DNA of 64,000 bases, taken from a virus. Both the position numbers and the translations under genes were made by a program. The notes under the pieces are model-generated. The model saw nothing but the letters and a program-made list of their open reading frames with translations. It had not been told where the DNA came from and ran no database searches. Location of the stretch: IMG/VR virus record IMGVR_UViG_3300031721_000685, positions 1-64,000 of that record; one strand, given 5' to 3'. Shown piece after piece: positions 20,641 to 27,259 of this stretch. How positions within the stretch are numbered: the first letter of the stretch is position 1; each line of letters starts with the position of its first letter.

Positions 20641-20648
20641 TATAAATA
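20641..20648 (+). promoter_or_regulatory. T4-type late promoter of the plus-strand operon
   Basis: TATAAATA about 40 nt before the first ATG. Confidence 0.75.
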
Positions 20649-20688
20649 GTCGAATGACATAATGTTAAATTATATTAGGATTGATGAT

Positions 20689-21234
20689 ATGAATAGATTT
20701 ATCATTGCTTTGTTCGCTTTGATTTTCGCATCTACGAGCGTTTATGCTCAAACAGAAGACAAAATAACGACTGATAATACCAGTAAGATCGACTCTAAGA
20801 CTACGGTCACGTCTCCGCCACCGTCTGCTATCTCTCCTACTATCAATTCATCTAACTCTGATTTGTGTACAATCGGTGTAGCGGGAGCAGTGCAGACTCA
20901 GATTCTAGGTCTCTCTGCTGGTAAGACTGTGCGTGATATGAACTGCGAAAAACTGAAGAATGCTAAGACGCTATATGATATGGGTATGAAAGTTGCAGCA
21001 GTGTCTGTGATGTGTCAAGACAAACGTGTTTTTGATGCTATGATGCACGCCGGAACACCTTGTCCATATGATGGCTTGATTGGCGCTGAAGCTAAAGCAG
21101 GCTGGCAAAATGATGAAGAAAAAGCACCGAAAGAAGAAAATACAGTTAGGAGTGTAATGGATGATGATAGCACGATTACCCTTATTGGTGGCGGCATTGT
21201 TCTTGGTTTGCTTACCATTCTCAGCATACTCTGA
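20689..21234 (+). CDS. Exported 4-Cys protein with C-terminal TM anchor
   Basis: Signal peptide ending VYA-Q; four Cys; hydrophobic C-terminus. Confidence 0.75.
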   Translation: MNRFIIALFALIFASTSVYAQTEDKITTDNTSKIDSKTTVTSPPPSAISPTINSSNSDLCTIGVAGAVQTQILGLSAGKTVRDMNCEKLKNAKTLYDMGMKVAAVSVMCQDKRVFDAMMHAGTPCPYDGLIGAEAKAGWQNDEEKAPKEENTVRSVMDDDSTITLIGGGIVLGLLTILSIL

Positions 21235-22015
21235 AACTAAATCTGCAACTTCAAGGAACGCAGCAGATAATGTGACAGTATGGGATATGGATCTGGTTCT
21301 ACCACCTGAAACTGGTCTAATCGTAAATCAAGTGCGTTACAATTATACAGTAAATAAAATCCGTGAAGATGCTTTCTCGGTGACAATTCAGAACAAAAGA
21401 GTTGGCGGTGGTGATAAGAATGTTTTTGAAAGCACTGATGATTGGTCTGGCGTAGAAGGTCAGACGATTGTCAAAAATCTAGCTGTCGCTAATATACCGA
21501 GAATACTCTGGGGCGAAGGCAGTCTCAATACAACGGGCGAAGGTGAAGTCGTAGATGCTAATGTTCGTTATAGCTATACGTTTGATAATTGTGTTAATCC
21601 ACTTACAAATCCATTATGTCCTCAACCGGTTGAAAATAGGGAATTACCACTGATTATAAATCCCTTTGACTCAGAAGAGGTGCAAAACGCTCTTGCACAA
21701 ACAGTTGATATTGAAGAAGATGATGAGCGCAAAGCCGATGAAGAAAATTCACTTGAAAATAAAGACAGAAGGCGACAACTAGCACGATCAAACAACCCCT
21801 TAATGACTAATGCTGCTCAACTTGCTGCATTATTTGAACAAATGGCTTTGGTTCCTAAGTTTGAAGAATATTATGCTGTCGAACTACAAGGCGGCACCTA
21901 TAAAGAAACTGTTGAATTAAAAGATGCTACATTACCTGACAATAGAAAAGCAATGAGAAGTTTATCTAAAGATCAGAAGTTTAATAAGATAATTAGGTCA
22001 CAATACGAAAAATAG
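21161..22015 (+). CDS. Exported protein
   Basis: Signal peptide ending AYS-E; beta-rich N-half; CVNPLTNPLCP. Confidence 0.75.
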   Translation: MMIARLPLLVAALFLVCLPFSAYSETKSATSRNAADNVTVWDMDLVLPPETGLIVNQVRYNYTVNKIREDAFSVTIQNKRVGGGDKNVFESTDDWSGVEGQTIVKNLAVANIPRILWGEGSLNTTGEGEVVDANVRYSYTFDNCVNPLTNPLCPQPVENRELPLIINPFDSEEVQNALAQTVDIEEDDERKADEENSLENKDRRRQLARSNNPLMTNAAQLAALFEQMALVPKFEEYYAVELQGGTYKETVELKDATLPDNRKAMRSLSKDQKFNKIIRSQYEK

Positions 22016-22028
22016 AGAGGATAAAAAT

Positions 22029-22547
22029 ATGCTCAATAAAGTTCAAATGAGATATTTTTTGTTATCGGCGGTTGCAGCAGTATTTGCAACGACTGCTTTG
22101 GCAAACGAAGACGCTCCCATCACAGGTACAGTAGAATCTAAATGCGTAATCTTCACCGAAACGCAAGGTATCTATGGCACTCCACTAGCTAGTAGGCTTT
22201 CTACTGCTGTGGCAGATGGTGGCGTACAACCAATCATTCGTTATGATGTAGCGCTTGCTGATGCATTTCTTGGAAAGATTACCTTTCCTAGCGCATTTTC
22301 AAGTTCTCCATCGCTATCTGATACTCAAACGTTTACGGGCAACGTAGAGGTTCACAGTGTATCTGATGCTTTGATGGCAGATTATGACACAGATAAAATT
22401 ACGTTTAACAACACTCACGAATATGATTTGACTATTGCTGGTACAGTACGATTCAAAATTTCTTCACAGGTCGACTACGGCGTCAGTAAAGCGTTTCCTG
22501 CTGGTACGTATACATCACTCGTAAATGCGGAGTGCATCGCAAAGTAA
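22029..22547 (+). CDS. Exported fimbrial/pilin-like protein
   Basis: Signal ALA-N; ITGTVESKC near the N-terminus and PAGTYTSLVNAEC at the C-terminus. Confidence 0.55.
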   Translation: MLNKVQMRYFLLSAVAAVFATTALANEDAPITGTVESKCVIFTETQGIYGTPLASRLSTAVADGGVQPIIRYDVALADAFLGKITFPSAFSSSPSLSDTQTFTGNVEVHSVSDALMADYDTDKITFNNTHEYDLTIAGTVRFKISSQVDYGVSKAFPAGTYTSLVNAECIAK

Positions 22548-22559
22548 GGTAGATATGTT

Positions 22560-22931
22560 ATGAAATATGTAGTTATAGCAGCAGCGCTATTGTTATCGTT
22601 TAGCGCTGCTGCTCATGAAATGACGCCAGCTTATATTAAAGTTAAACCTTCGGGCGTGCCCAATGTTTATCTCACCGAGATAAAAATGCTTAATAGAAGA
22701 AGTGATGTATCATACTATGAAATAACCGCCCATGATGCTGACTGGAAAAAATTACCCTTTGCTTCTTTTGAAAGGGTATTTAAACTTCCATACACAAAAA
22801 GAAAGACTATTAAGATATATTTTAAAAAGAAAACTGTAGACAAGCTTGTCTATGTATGTACGAAATCGAAGATAATTAAAGGAAAAGGAACGCTCGTCTC
22901 ATCTCGAATATGTTCTAAATTTAACCGATGA
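22560..22931 (+). CDS. Exported protein, pilus-chaperone-like N-terminus
   Basis: Signal AAA-H; HEMTPAYIKV...IKMLNRR...YYEI; C-terminal Cys pair. Confidence 0.45.
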   Translation: MKYVVIAAALLLSFSAAAHEMTPAYIKVKPSGVPNVYLTEIKMLNRRSDVSYYEITAHDADWKKLPFASFERVFKLPYTKRKTIKIYFKKKTVDKLVYVCTKSKIIKGKGTLVSSRICSKFNR

Positions 22932-23335
22932 AATATATTGCTTTTTTGATGATACTGTTGATGAGCACCTCGGCATATGCTCAATCAACTAGTTTGAATT
23001 TAAGTATTCCGAGCGCATCTAACTCGTTTGGAAGCGACAGATTTCGTGCAGGCGATCTAGACTGTCAGAACTCAATAGGTTCTGCTACAAACTTCGAATT
23101 TGGCGTCACTGGTGTACGAAAGGGAGAGAATACTAATCCTCTCAGTTCAAATTTTGGCAAATCGTCACCAGATGTAGGCGTATATGCTAGAATCGTGATA
23201 CCGCTAGGCGCAAGACCAAAGGCAAGAATTAACTGTGATACGCTATATCAATTAGAACTATCAAAGAAACGATTAGAAATTCTTAAACTTCAAAAAGAAC
23301 TCAGTGAACTGAAAGCATTGCAGTTTGAGAATTAG
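22928..23335 (+). CDS. Exported protein with amphipathic beta-hairpin and coiled-coil tail
   Basis: Signal AYA-Q; NFEFGVTG...VGVYARIVIPLG between two Cys. Confidence 0.7.
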   Translation: MKYIAFLMILLMSTSAYAQSTSLNLSIPSASNSFGSDRFRAGDLDCQNSIGSATNFEFGVTGVRKGENTNPLSSNFGKSSPDVGVYARIVIPLGARPKARINCDTLYQLELSKKRLEILKLQKELSELKALQFEN

Positions 23336-23344
23336 GAGAGCGTA

Positions 23345-23824
23345 ATGGCCGAAGTAGAAATTGCTGGAATAAACCTCAAAGGGGGCAAAATCATGGTCCT
23401 CTTTACAGTTCTATCTACTCTCGGTGGTGGGCTGTGGGGCGGCTTCGAGTTTTATTCAGACTATAGAGCGATGAAAGAAGTTGTTGAGAACATCGACATT
23501 CAGGAAATCAAAGCAGGCAATGCTCTTGTGATTACCAAGTTAGATGAAGCAATCGATTACACCAGAGATATTAAACAGGGACTCAAAGCCGATATCATTC
23601 GTACAGAGAAAATAACAGACGATACGAGCCGTCGTATGAAAGACCTTGAAAGAGGTATCGATGTTCGTATGAGAGAATTGTCAAAGCTTTCTCGTGAGTC
23701 TGAAAAGGATGTTAGAAATACAATGCGTGAAACAGAAGAACGCATAGACCTCAAGATGGAAAAGCTGGATACTAGTCTGAGAGAGTCGCTTCAAGAAGCA
23801 CTTGATAATCCTCTAACAAAATAA
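23345..23824 (+). CDS. Membrane-anchored coiled-coil protein
   Basis: N-terminal TM LSTLGGGLWGGF followed by a long coiled coil; AGGAG RBS. Confidence 0.75.
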   Translation: MAEVEIAGINLKGGKIMVLFTVLSTLGGGLWGGFEFYSDYRAMKEVVENIDIQEIKAGNALVITKLDEAIDYTRDIKQGLKADIIRTEKITDDTSRRMKDLERGIDVRMRELSKLSRESEKDVRNTMRETEERIDLKMEKLDTSLRESLQEALDNPLTK

Positions 23825-23830
23825 ACATTT

Positions 23831-24298
23831 CTAATTGACATATATTCCTTGACGATTAAAATTATTCATAATGAATTCTTTTGCTAATGGACCTTGCAAG
23901 GCATATGCTTCTGTTTCCCACGGCTCTTTTTTAGAGAATCTCCTGTATTTGCCATCCTTGCATCTCCAGCTATGAGTGCTTACCATACGTTTAGTTGCAT
24001 TTTGCATAACATGAACCATTTCATGACAAACGGTAGAAATGAATGCATCAACGCCATCATCAATCCCTTCTATAATTCCATCACGAGATAATCGATTATC
24101 TATTTCAATAACATATGATTTATAACCAACATCTTTATAGCAAAACCCATATGCATTCTCTTTTAAAGTGTTTCGGATTATGCATTGAATATTTAAATTT
24201 CGATGCCGTGATAATAATTTCTTAACACAAAAATCCATAACATTTTCAGCAAGAATTCGGTCTTCTTTGATGCCACCTCTTGTTTCTATAATAATCAT
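23831..24298 (-). CDS. HEXXH zinc metallopeptidase-like (SprT-like) protein
   Basis: CHEMVHVMQ and PWETEAY. Confidence 0.7.
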   Translation of the reverse strand: MIIIETRGGIKEDRILAENVMDFCVKKLLSRHRNLNIQCIIRNTLKENAYGFCYKDVGYKSYVIEIDNRLSRDGIIEGIDDGVDAFISTVCHEMVHVMQNATKRMVSTHSWRCKDGKYRRFSKKEPWETEAYALQGPLAKEFIMNNFNRQGIYVN

Positions 24299-24450
24299 CG
24301 TATTAACAGAAAGCAACACAACAAAAGAATAAGAATATAAACTATTTCTATAACCATCATTACTCCCACGGAAACTATAGAATACATACCTGTTGGAAAA
24401 TAAAGCTGATAGAATGAGCTATTAAGAAAGAGATTAATTAAATATTTCAT
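24295..24450 (-). CDS. Small hydrophobic protein, probably leaderless
   Basis: ATG 7 nt after TATAAT; ATGA overlap with the peptidase gene. Confidence 0.45.
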   Translation of the reverse strand: MKYLINLFLNSSFYQLYFPTGMYSIVSVGVMMVIEIVYILILLLCCFLLIR

Positions 24451-24457
24451 ATAAGCT

Positions 24458-24485
24458 ATTATACAGCATATGCGAGAAATGTCAA
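24458..24485 (-). promoter_or_regulatory. Sigma70-like promoter
   Basis: TTGACA-16bp-TATAAT, similar to 10407-10434. Confidence 0.75.
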
Positions 24486-24546: not shown

Positions 24547-24554
24547 TATAAATA
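24547..24554 (+). promoter_or_regulatory. T4-type late promoter
   Basis: TATAAATA with no convincing downstream CDS. Confidence 0.7.
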
Positions 24555-24559
24555 GAACA

Positions 24560-24720
24560 CTGGGTGCGTGTTAGTGTATTCAAAGGAGTACAAGAGGCAA
24601 GTGTTAGGATCATATCAATCCAAAGCAAGGAAAAGTCGAAGTCACACTAAGGTGTCGCTGGGGTTGCGTTCGACCACGCTGATAGGTAAATAAAACCGCT
24701 TCTTCGAGGCGGTTTTTTTT
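24560..24720 (+). ncRNA. Candidate structured late ncRNA (about 160 nt)
   Basis: Bounded by late promoter and terminator; nested helices GCGTG/CACGC, TGTATTC/GAGTACA, GGAT/ATCC, GTCGAA/TTCGAC, ACAC/GTGT. Confidence 0.6.
24692..24720. terminator. Bidirectional intrinsic terminator
   Basis: AAAACCGCTTC-TTC-GAGGCGGTTTTTTTT; serves gp41 (minus) and the ncRNA (plus). Confidence 0.85.
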
Positions 24721-24735
24721 GTCTTCAGCAAATGA

Positions 24736-26151
24736 CTACGCAAAACTAGCCTTCCATATATTCTTGCCAAACTTTTTAGAAAGGCTAGAGTCTTTCTCTT
24801 CTTCCTCCCATCGTTTACCAAACGGACTATTGCTCATAACAGGAGTATCATCTACGAGACCGTCTTGAGCAGATTGTTCTACGTTATAAAACCTCATTCT
24901 CGAACGGTCAATACCAACAACAAATCGTTTATGGTTATTTGGGTCAGCCCATCGATTTTTCAACTGTTTGAACATAATTTGACCAAGTTGCTCTAACTCT
25001 TCTGTAGCAATGAGAGCGATCATAAAATCAGCCGTTGCAGGTAGACCAAACGACTCAGAAGTATCTTCAAGACCAACATCTGAACTACTAAACCCAGAGC
25101 GAGTCGTTTGAGTAGCAGATACAATTGGAACATTAAATTCTACAGCAAGACCACGAAGTTCTTCGGCAATAGACTTGATTAGAGTATAAGAGTTCGCCAT
25201 AGCGTTTGCTTTTATGCGGCTACTTGTACAAATATTCAGATAGTCGATGTAGATGATATCTGGTGTAATATTCTTCTTGAGTTTTAATTCGTTTAGCAGA
25301 TGACGGAAATGGCCAGAGCCAGCAGATGCTGTTGGATATTCTTTTATAATCAACTTGCCTGTAGTTTTACTCTTCAGTCGATTGATTTTCTTTTCAAAAA
25401 CATCTTTAGGCATCATATGAATTTCGTCAATAGATGCGTCAAGTAGGTTTGCATCAATACGTTCAGCGATTCGTTCTTCGGCCATTTCCATTGTAATGTA
25501 CAATACGTTCTTGCCATGCATAAAATTACTAGCAGCAAAATGACACATTGCAAGTGATTTACCTACGCCTGTGCCAGCAAGAATGATATTGAGGGATTTA
25601 CGAGGAAGACCTCCCTTCGTGACTGTATTTAGTAGATCGATATCAAATTCAAGGCGGGCCTCTTTATGATGATAAAATTCATATCGCTCATCAACGTTCT
25701 CAAGAAAATCGTGACCTACGCTATTGTCAAAGGATACACCCAAAGCGTCTTGAAGTATCTTTGGTATAGACCCCTTGTCTAGGTTGTTGTCCTTCTGGTC
25801 TAAAACACCAATTGATGTTCTAATAGCATTGTATAGAGCCTTGTCTTGACAAAACGTTTCAGTCTTATCAAGCAACCAGTCTTCACTATTCTTCTCATCA
25901 TATGATAGTTCATCAACAGTTTTACATACCACATCGAGCTGTTCTTGGGATATGCTACGAGACTCTTCCAACGAAAAACGCAAAGCATCATTTGTTGGTA
26001 TAGAGTTGTAGTCTTTGATATAGGTATCAATCGTTCGATAGATTAGCTTGTGTTCTAAACTTTCGAAATACTCTTCTTCTAAAAACGGTAATACTTTCCT
26101 TGTGTATTCTTCATTATGTAATAGACTCCCTAGAATGAGAGATTCGATCAT
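24736..26151 (-). CDS. gp41: Replicative DNA helicase
   Basis: AGTGVGKS, IDYLNI, SATQTTR, SESFGLPATAD. Confidence 0.95.
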   Translation of the reverse strand: MIESLILGSLLHNEEYTRKVLPFLEEEYFESLEHKLIYRTIDTYIKDYNSIPTNDALRFSLEESRSISQEQLDVVCKTVDELSYDEKNSEDWLLDKTETFCQDKALYNAIRTSIGVLDQKDNNLDKGSIPKILQDALGVSFDNSVGHDFLENVDERYEFYHHKEARLEFDIDLLNTVTKGGLPRKSLNIILAGTGVGKSLAMCHFAASNFMHGKNVLYITMEMAEERIAERIDANLLDASIDEIHMMPKDVFEKKINRLKSKTTGKLIIKEYPTASAGSGHFRHLLNELKLKKNITPDIIYIDYLNICTSSRIKANAMANSYTLIKSIAEELRGLAVEFNVPIVSATQTTRSGFSSSDVGLEDTSESFGLPATADFMIALIATEELEQLGQIMFKQLKNRWADPNNHKRFVVGIDRSRMRFYNVEQSAQDGLVDDTPVMSNSPFGKRWEEEEKDSSLSKKFGKNIWKASFA

Positions 26152-26194: not shown

Positions 26195-27259
26195 CTACCC
26201 GTTTGCTTCAGCAAAAACATCCTCTTCTTCTGGTGCGAACATCGAGTTTTCTCCAATAGTGTAACGACTCTTAATATACTCTGAAAAGTCGGTGGTTGTA
26301 AACATATTTGTCCAAAATTTTCCATTATCTTGGATTTCTTTTGCTCGCATCTTGTCGCCAACGAGTTCGCCTGTTTCACGATCTACGAGTTGATACCAAC
26401 CGTTTGAAGGCTTCGCTAGATAGCTCGCTTCAAGAGCAAGAGCCATCAAACCAGACCACTTATTAATACCACCATTCCATGTAACTGAAATTGGAATCTT
26501 TGACTTCTCCTTGATGAATCGAGATTTTTCAATGTTAATGATGAAATTATAACCAGCAATATCAGTGCCATCTTTCTCTTGTTGGCGACCAATAATCCAA
26601 ATAGAATCTGCCGAGTAATAGATGCCTGTACCACCAGATACAACATCTTTAGAATACATTTCTTGCGTTTTGTAAGTATGATTAACAGCAATCAATGGAA
26701 TATCTTTGAGCGTAAGATGTGGTGTTACCATACGAAACAAAGACTTCATCTGCTTTGCACGAGACATATCTGCAACAGACTTGCCATCCATAGCGTCATC
26801 AACTTCTTTCTTAGATGCTAGATTGCCCACAGAATCGATGACGATACACACACGGTCACCTCTATCAATCCCGTCAAGTTGCTTCATAATATCAAACTTT
26901 AGTTGCTCAACATCCATAATAGGAGTATGAACAACACGATTCATATCAATATCAAAAGATTCGAAGTAGTTCTGTGGTGTGCCGAACTCAGAGTCATAGA
27001 ACAACACAACAGCATCATCATATTTCTTTAGATATGCACTCGCCATTAGTAGTGAGAATGCAGTTTTGAAGTGCTTAGATGGTCCTGCAAGCACCGTAAG
27101 CCCAGGCATCAATCCGCCATCAATCCGACCAGATAGTGCGACGTTAACCATAGGTACCTGTGTTGGCACCATTTCTTTCTTACCATATACTTTAGAGTTG
27201 GCAAGCGTAGCAGTAAGCTTAACTGTACTATTCTTAGTCAATTTATCAAGTAGGCTCAT
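26195..27259 (-). CDS. uvsX: RecA-like recombinase
   Basis: AGPSKHFKT, YDSEFG, DSVGNLAS, SGGTGIYYSA. Confidence 0.95.
   Translation of the reverse strand: MSLLDKLTKNSTVKLTATLANSKVYGKKEMVPTQVPMVNVALSGRIDGGLMPGLTVLAGPSKHFKTAFSLLMASAYLKKYDDAVVLFYDSEFGTPQNYFESFDIDMNRVVHTPIMDVEQLKFDIMKQLDGIDRGDRVCIVIDSVGNLASKKEVDDAMDGKSVADMSRAKQMKSLFRMVTPHLTLKDIPLIAVNHTYKTQEMYSKDVVSGGTGIYYSADSIWIIGRQQEKDGTDIAGYNFIINIEKSRFIKEKSKIPISVTWNGGINKWSGLMALALEASYLAKPSNGWYQLVDRETGELVGDKMRAKEIQDNGKFWTNMFTTTDFSEYIKSRYTIGENSMFAPEEEDVFAEANG

Follow-up and report, generated by a model that had tools for sequence, protein, structure and literature searches.

A structured non-coding RNA gene is predicted in the window analysed here, which is a stretch of 64,000 nucleotides from the 75.8-kb IMG/VR contig of an uncultured marine T4-like myovirus. 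The gene is predicted to be single-copy and non-coding with a product of about 155–160 nt, and as judged from sequence comparison the RNA is neither an mRNA nor a cis-regulator. The original prediction had proposed a stand-alone structured non-coding RNA at this place, and it is upheld by compensatory changes in homologues and by a promoter motif and terminator that belong to the gene itself. We consider the account as a whole to be moderately probable, namely that this is a real single-copy non-coding RNA gene of a new family, that it is transcribed late, and that its product acts in trans as a protein-binding RNA.

In T4-type phages, late transcription depends on gp55 and gp33 and is directed by TATAAATA about 6 nt upstream of the start. 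An exact copy of this late promoter motif is present at 24547-24554 on the plus strand, just where it had been placed beforehand. By the geometry of T4 late promoters, the phage late machinery would start the transcript near 24560, about 6 nt past the motif. The window contains 15 copies of TATAAATA compared to 5.3 expected, a number that none of 100 shuffles reached. Only two of the 15 are on the plus strand, where they serve the plus-strand operon at 20641 and the RNA unit, respectively. The distance of the motif from the RNA is fixed throughout the family, with an exact copy 6-9 nt 5' of an invariant GGGUGCG in all family members that have upstream sequence (31/31). At the level of the motif, the unit has the exact sequence and fixed spacing (31/31) of a T4-type late unit, the motif is enriched in the window, and the exact TATAAATA points to late transcription.

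The 3' end of the gene is marked by an intrinsic terminator (24692..24720, plus strand) with an 11-bp stem, a 3-nt loop and a U8 tail, matching the strong terminator of the original prediction. The stem occupies 24692-24716 and the T8 run 24713-24720, and the transcript would end at this U8 run. Promoter motif and terminator enclose a core of about 130 nt. An A-run is present on the 5' side of the stem, so the hairpin is bidirectional and able to end the convergent gp41 transcript too. Every family member has an intrinsic terminator 3' of the RNA, and the span from the GGG to the U-run is 142-171 nt across the family. A search with the family model indicated that the RNA gene is single-copy within its own contig.

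Replication genes lie on one side of the RNA gene. The RNA is convergent with a gp41-type replicative helicase gene (24736..26151, minus strand, 471 aa; phrog_19, E = 6e-125), and UvsX (26195-27259) lies behind gp41. The window gp41 is about 60% identical to gp41 of Stenotrophomonas phage DLP6, Methylophilales phage Melnitz and cyanomyoviruses. In the wider family, gp41 adjoins the RNA in all 35 loci and is convergent with it in 34 of them. On the other side of the RNA, a gene of 103-161 aa diverges from it in 15 of the 23 loci with enough upstream sequence, and this gene is probably a relative of the 162-aa ORF of the window. Arrangements differ inside the subgroup to which the window belongs: clades B and D have the module directly after the plus-strand operon, and the clade C module is turned round so that it converges on that operon. 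Promoter, core and terminator stay together while orientation changes, which indicates an autonomous gene.

Relatives of the RNA were collected by several searches. The first, which used gp41 and blastn, located the element in nine viral contigs, including clade B at 83-88% identity. When metagenomes were scanned for two conserved linkers and a covariance model was then applied, more clade-B copies, clade C and the recombinant L075 came to light; clade D (L132) came from loci of the neighbouring 159-aa protein. Model R2, which was built on these lineages, detected a far more distant copy (L028/L223), and this copy likewise has TATAAATA and a terminator. Finally, a three-block pattern was made from the shared invariants, with AGGAA-N-AGUC serving as a search block, and it returned 45 viral stretches. 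All 35 new loci were strong model matches (35/35; E < 1e-11), and the already known distant copy L223 was also among the returns (E = 4.5e-5). Pattern matches in L034/L037 and L043, L110/L094 (inside purA) and L059, L202/L203, and two Myxococcota MAG contigs were rejected as chance, as was a second weak match in L132 that lies inside an ORF.

In total, the family comprises about 60 contigs, every one of them from an uncultured aquatic T4-like phage, and no fewer than 30 of the sequences are distinct. The gp41 proteins of its members are 61-74% identical to the window gp41. The family model did not find the RNA in the genomes of T4, DLP6 or Melnitz, and blastn with the window copy and two distant members as queries gave no match in 50,697 phage records. 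Loci with gp41 at 43-60% identity had no model match and no opposite-strand TATAAATA, and 70 other loci of the 159-aa protein had no model match. Four DNA sequencing runs contributed identical fragments only and no new variants. No published description of the RNA was found in the literature. Judged by these searches, the RNA is an undescribed family restricted to uncultured aquatic T4-like myoviruses.

The predicted fold has six helices, all on the plus strand. P1 is predicted to close a four-way junction with P2, P3 and P4, and P4 to lead to a three-way junction that consists of a 3-nt linker, P5 and P6. Helices P1 to P5 had already been proposed at the right coordinates, and related sequences support all five; the sixth, P6, was absent from that earlier fold. 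The 5' segment GGGUGCGUG (24562..24570) is invariant or nearly so in 28 of the 29 distinct sequences. It ends with the five bases (24566-24570) that make up the 5' side of P1 (GCGTG 24566-70 / CACGC 24675-79), a helix in which 96% of cells are paired. The outer pair of P1 alternates between G-C and G-U, and L223 has ACAUG/CAUGU, with two pairs changed on both sides. P2 is a 7-bp hairpin with an AAAG loop (TGTATTC 24575-81 / GAGTACA 24586-92), and six of its seven pairs are compensatory. It is followed by the purine-rich joining strand J2/3 (24593..24606) with the near-invariant run AAGAGGCAAGUGU, which starts at the last P2 base and is identical in 28 of the 29 distinct sequences; the outlier is L223, with CAGCGGCACGUGC.

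P3 is a hairpin that forms a variable arm (GGAT 24607-10 / ATCC 24618-21), with 75% of cells paired and all five modelled pairs compensatory (5/5). It varies in both length and sequence, and GGAU/AUCC becomes GGUA/UACC in clade C. The joining strand J3/4 (24622..24634) contains AGGAA, and together with the start of P4 it makes up the family-wide AGGAA-N-AGUC. P4 (GTCGAA 24635-40 / TTCGAC 24669-74) has 99% of cells paired and three covarying pairs; the GUC linker lies inside it at 24641-43, followed by the hairpin P5 (ACAC 24644-47 / GTGT 24652-55; also 99% paired with three covarying pairs). P6 (CGC 24656-58 / GCG 24666-68) is the most strongly covarying helix, with 100% of cells paired and all three pairs covarying (3/3). 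Its stem occurs in six versions (CGC/GCG, CAG/CUG, CAC/GUG, CGG/CCG, AGG/CCU, and CCG/CGG), and it closes the invariant heptaloop UGGGGUU (24659-65). The 3' tail (24680..24691) varies in sequence and length. An outer helix P0 between this tail and a 2-4 nt 5' overhang is tentative; candidate pairings seen by eye are GCA/UGC, UAAG/CUUA, and CU.G/UAG.

Invariant positions are found in the 5' GGGU, AAGAGGCAAGUGU of J2/3, AGGAA-N-AGUC, the P6 loop, and CGAC-CACG at the joint of P4 and P1, and there are about 45 of them in the compact junction core. Covarying column pairs outside the six helices were isolated only, and none supported a pseudoknot. Other structural likenesses were considered and rejected. 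A resemblance to the sarcin-ricin loop (AGUACAAGAGG of the window copy compared to AGUACGAGAGG) was dismissed, as its AGUAC portion, which is the 3' strand of P2, covaries and lacks conservation in the family. An anti-terminator formed by the 5' half of the terminator with GAGGC of J2/3 is unconserved in L223 and other members.

Compensatory change between related sequences is the main evidence for selection on RNA structure, and it was found in the homologues near gp41, the place where the original prediction had suggested looking for it. In an alignment of eight sequences, 93% of cells were paired and seven pairs were compensatory, compared to 0-2 pairs when the partners were slid. With 29 distinct sequences, 94.7% of cells were paired and 22 of 30 pairs were compensatory, compared to 25-51% paired and 4-7 compensatory pairs in the slid controls. 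None of 500 shuffles reached the covariation score observed for the 29 sequences, and covariation was present in all six helices. Both alignments (8 and 29 sequences) were fitted to the model, which favours the structure; MAFFT and RNAalifold were used on 21 sequences as an independent check. This recovered P2, P4, P5 and P6 de novo, and 13 of its 20 predicted pairs were compensatory. It did not form P1, and instead joined the 5' UGC to GCA of J2/3. As each of these two segments is invariant, either pairing agrees with the alignment; P1 is favoured because of the double change to ACAUG/CAUGU in L223 and the alternation of the outer pair between G-C and G-U. Folding energy was unremarkable (z = -1.85 with the terminator, and -0.6 to +1.0 for clade cores), and because the core folds no better than shuffles, support for the structure comes from comparison.

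The pairing data also identify the strand that folds. G-U pairs on the plus strand occur 12 times at one P1 pair and six times at one P4 pair; each would be an A-C mismatch on the other strand, so the plus strand is the folded one. This strand specificity bears on the possibility that the conserved element acts as DNA, for example as an origin, as a site for packaging or recombination, or simply as the boundary between a promoter and a terminator, with no functional RNA involved. The element does sit at a boundary of convergent transcription beside replication genes, as such a site might. However, the G-U pairs are specific to the plus strand, promoter and terminator exactly flank the conserved core in all members, and a protein-binding DNA site would not need covariation in six helices. 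We regard a DNA-level element as extremely unlikely.

Comparison with the adjacent helicase gene gives a measure of how strongly the RNA is conserved. In a set of eight clade-B loci, the subclades differ from each other at 18-20% of gp41 third codon positions, whereas the 135-nt core differs by only 0-2 nt, which indicates selection at the nucleotide level. Where lineages differ, they do so through compensatory pairs in the stems and at positions in hairpin loops. A small gene for a basic peptide of 30-31 aa was considered as an alternative; a frame runs from GTG at 24601 to a stop at 24691-93, with AAGGAG 11 nt 5' of the GTG. All five lineages in the window's subgroup keep this frame open, and a +2/+1 indel pair in clade D leaves it so. 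Nevertheless, it has none of the codon-level conservation that the original prediction named as one finding that would speak against an RNA; pN/pS is about 1 (0.9-1.9 in the GTG frame, and similar in the other two frames). Variable sites are distributed 12/7/10 on codon positions 1/2/3 with no third-position excess, and synonymous differences are absent where gp41 shows 18-20%. In addition, the 43 nt 5' of the GTG are conserved as much as the ORF, AAGGAG is unconserved in the wider family, and the amino-acid changes are exactly the compensatory stem changes. A peptide gene is accordingly highly unlikely.

Known RNA classes were searched for in several ways, and the results agree with the earlier statement that the RNA is not a tRNA and has no recognised family. 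ARAGORN found no tRNA or tmRNA gene in the window, and a cloverleaf is incompatible with the fold because the joining strands are 13-15 nt long. Rfam 15 at gathering thresholds gave no match in the window or in L244. At relaxed thresholds, the window region and 11 diverse family loci had only scattered chance or terminator matches to different families. A riboswitch or other cis leader was rejected as a class; the next gene is convergent in 34 of the 35 wider-family loci, a separate late promoter is present in the single same-strand case, and the sequence leading up to the terminator is unconserved. A sponge of the Csr/Rsm type was rejected as well, with only one family-wide AGGAA plus AGAGG in the RNA and the other GGA sites of the window copy unconserved.

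Invariant junction strands and an invariant loop, carried by helices that covary freely, are what would be expected if an RNA is recognised through its three-dimensional shape. Stand-alone RNAs of bacteria and phages that look like this mostly serve one specific protein as its partner or its decoy, and for this reason the protein-binding reading is put first. We propose tentatively, with rather less than even confidence, that the RNA is a trans-acting, specific protein-binding RNA of late infection. Its invariant junction strands and loop would form one compact recognition surface, and the RNA would serve as a subunit of a complex or as a decoy for a phage or host protein. The late timing suggests a part in virion assembly or packaging, in the timing of lysis, or in shutting off earlier functions. 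Invariant junctions combined with covarying stems would be expected just as much of a ligand-binding RNA or of a ribozyme.

As a ligand-binding RNA, it would be an orphan aptamer that soaks up a metabolite or signalling nucleotide, or that tunes terminator read-through antisense to gp41. Invariant joining strands at multi-helix junctions together with freely covarying stems are the classic pattern of riboswitch aptamers, and read-through would be antisense to gp41 in 34 of the 35 wider-family loci. Arguing against an aptamer, no alternative pairing of the anti-terminator kind is conserved, the tail that links P1 to the terminator differs among members in sequence and length, a same-strand downstream gene is absent, and no Rfam aptamer matched, not even weakly. 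We judge this reading quite unlikely. A ribozyme, self-cleaving or otherwise, shares the same conservation pattern, and phages are rich in small ribozymes. It is very unlikely here, as no Rfam ribozyme family matched, no candidate cleavage site was found, and a single-copy gene with its own promoter and terminator would be unusual for self-cleaving motifs.

The conserved single-stranded parts of the RNA could alternatively act by base pairing. As a regulatory sRNA, it would pair with phage or host mRNAs through the UGGGGUU loop or the purine-rich linkers, and the terminator hairpin with its U-tail would be an Hfq-type handle. All members have a terminator with a long U-tail preceded by an A/U-rich stretch, and the 7-nt loop and several single-stranded stretches are invariant. 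The complement of the loop, AACCCCA, occurs seven times in the window compared to 2.8 expected, but one of these sites is the gene's own antisense, and the other six are inside coding sequence and not at ribosome-binding sites. The search of AACCCCA sites within the window yielded no conserved target, and about 45 invariant positions combined with six covarying helices are rare in base-pairing sRNAs. A base-pairing role is therefore unlikely, and binding of a specific protein is retained as the leading reading.

It is also possible, though with a low probability, that the RNA represents a new class confined to late infection. It could be a "sponge" for a small molecule or immune nucleotide that counters host defence, a new ribozyme, or an RNA that is loaded into virions. 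In the last case, the RNA would enter the virion with packaged enzymes and be delivered to the next cell. A sponge, a ribozyme and a virion RNA would each be compatible with the compact core of about 45 invariant positions, with the strict late promoter, and with the ancestral placement of the gene between gp41 and the genes for internal proteins and packaged enzymes (L223).

Stand-alone RNA genes that act in trans provide the nearest likeness to the proposed protein-binding mode. In 6S RNA, CsrB/RsmZ and Y RNA, the structure offers conserved single-stranded or loop elements to a protein, as we propose for the present RNA, and its purine-rich AGGA-type motifs resemble those of protein-binding regulatory RNAs. 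There is no homology to any of them. Csr sponges carry many GGA sites, whereas the present RNA has only one family-wide AGGAA, and unlike 6S RNA it has no mimic of an open promoter.

Other structured RNAs have been described from phages. The manA and wcaG motifs are orphan structured RNAs of T4-like cyanophages and are cis elements located upstream of genes (Weinberg et al., 2010; PMC2864571). Like manA/wcaG and GOLLD/ROOL, the present RNA is phage-borne, comes from uncultured or aquatic sequences only, is defined by covariation, and has conserved junction nucleotides and variable stems. It does not match any of these in sequence or structure (Rfam 15). Unlike manA/wcaG, it stands alone with its own late promoter motif and terminator and has no downstream gene, and it is far smaller than GOLLD/ROOL. 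T4 rnaC and rnaD (species 1 and 2 stable RNAs) are similar in being small (119-139 nt), stable-looking, non-coding RNAs of unknown function. However, they lie in a tRNA cluster and are cut from a tRNA precursor according to their annotation, whereas the window has no tRNA cluster and the present RNA adjoins gp41 and has its own late promoter motif. Model R3 had no match at rnaC/rnaD when searched against the whole T4 genome; its best match was elsewhere (10.8 bits, E = 1.15).

T4-like phages are among the most abundant viruses of oceans and lakes. To our knowledge, almost no stand-alone structured RNAs are known from them besides tRNAs, rnaC and rnaD. The six-helix fold, the strict late promoter, and conservation tighter than that of gp41 synonymous sites argue for a specific function under selection during the late phase, the period of virion construction and of the timing of lysis. 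Identification of its partner, whether protein, ligand or target, would reveal a function of RNA that is new to phage biology, and would also supply a compact natural fold for structural study.

Several features of the surrounding genes were observed in the course of this work. Pfam gave no match for the neighbour proteins, and PHROGs assigned them to families of unknown function only. The 162-aa neighbour (23831-24319, minus strand) probably starts at Met8 and contains a HEMVH (HExxH) motif. In the ESM Atlas it matched viral clusters, one of which is 21% SprT-like (PF10263), and it could thus be a small metallopeptidase of the phage. The minus strand also carries a perfect sigma-70 promoter (TTGACA, 16 nt, TATAAT) at 24458-24485. 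An ATG 7 nt past its -10 box opens P0122, a very hydrophobic ORF of 51 aa (24295-24450, minus strand), whose transcript would have little or no leader. An ORF of 81 aa that is listed from 24540 probably represents an overlong version of P0122.

The only plus-strand operon of the window (20641-23824) is a block of five genes encoding proteins of 284, 172, 123, 135 and 159 aa. This block is kept at 57-84% identity in L115 and L067, and clade C carries it turned round with respect to the RNA gene. The 159-aa protein has more than 1,800 metagenome relatives; the window copy is without a Pfam family, and a precomputed table gives PF01442 for two of the relatives.

The most distant member of the family (L223/L028, 1540-1600) differs in its arrangement, with the RNA and gp41 on the same strand. 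A second late promoter lies 3' of this RNA and is followed by a gene whose product starts with MKTFVEYLDEE, which resembles the T4 capsid-targeting sequence. The position of the L223 RNA between gp41 and a late gene resembling those for internal proteins would be compatible with a link to packaged proteins.

Two weak model matches (about 11 bits) were seen in L184 (1142-1234) and L164 (2485-2589), within an exported-protein operon of more distant phages. Both share UGUACA...CAAAGGUGUACAAGAG...AAAGCAAG with the P2, J2/3 and J3/4 region of the window RNA, a likeness that could be chance or a remnant. L075 (1665-1801) is a natural recombinant of the RNA with its junction right after P5. Its 5' two-thirds match clade B exactly; the exact match is to clade D in P6, in the 3' strands of P4 and P1, and in the tail and terminator.
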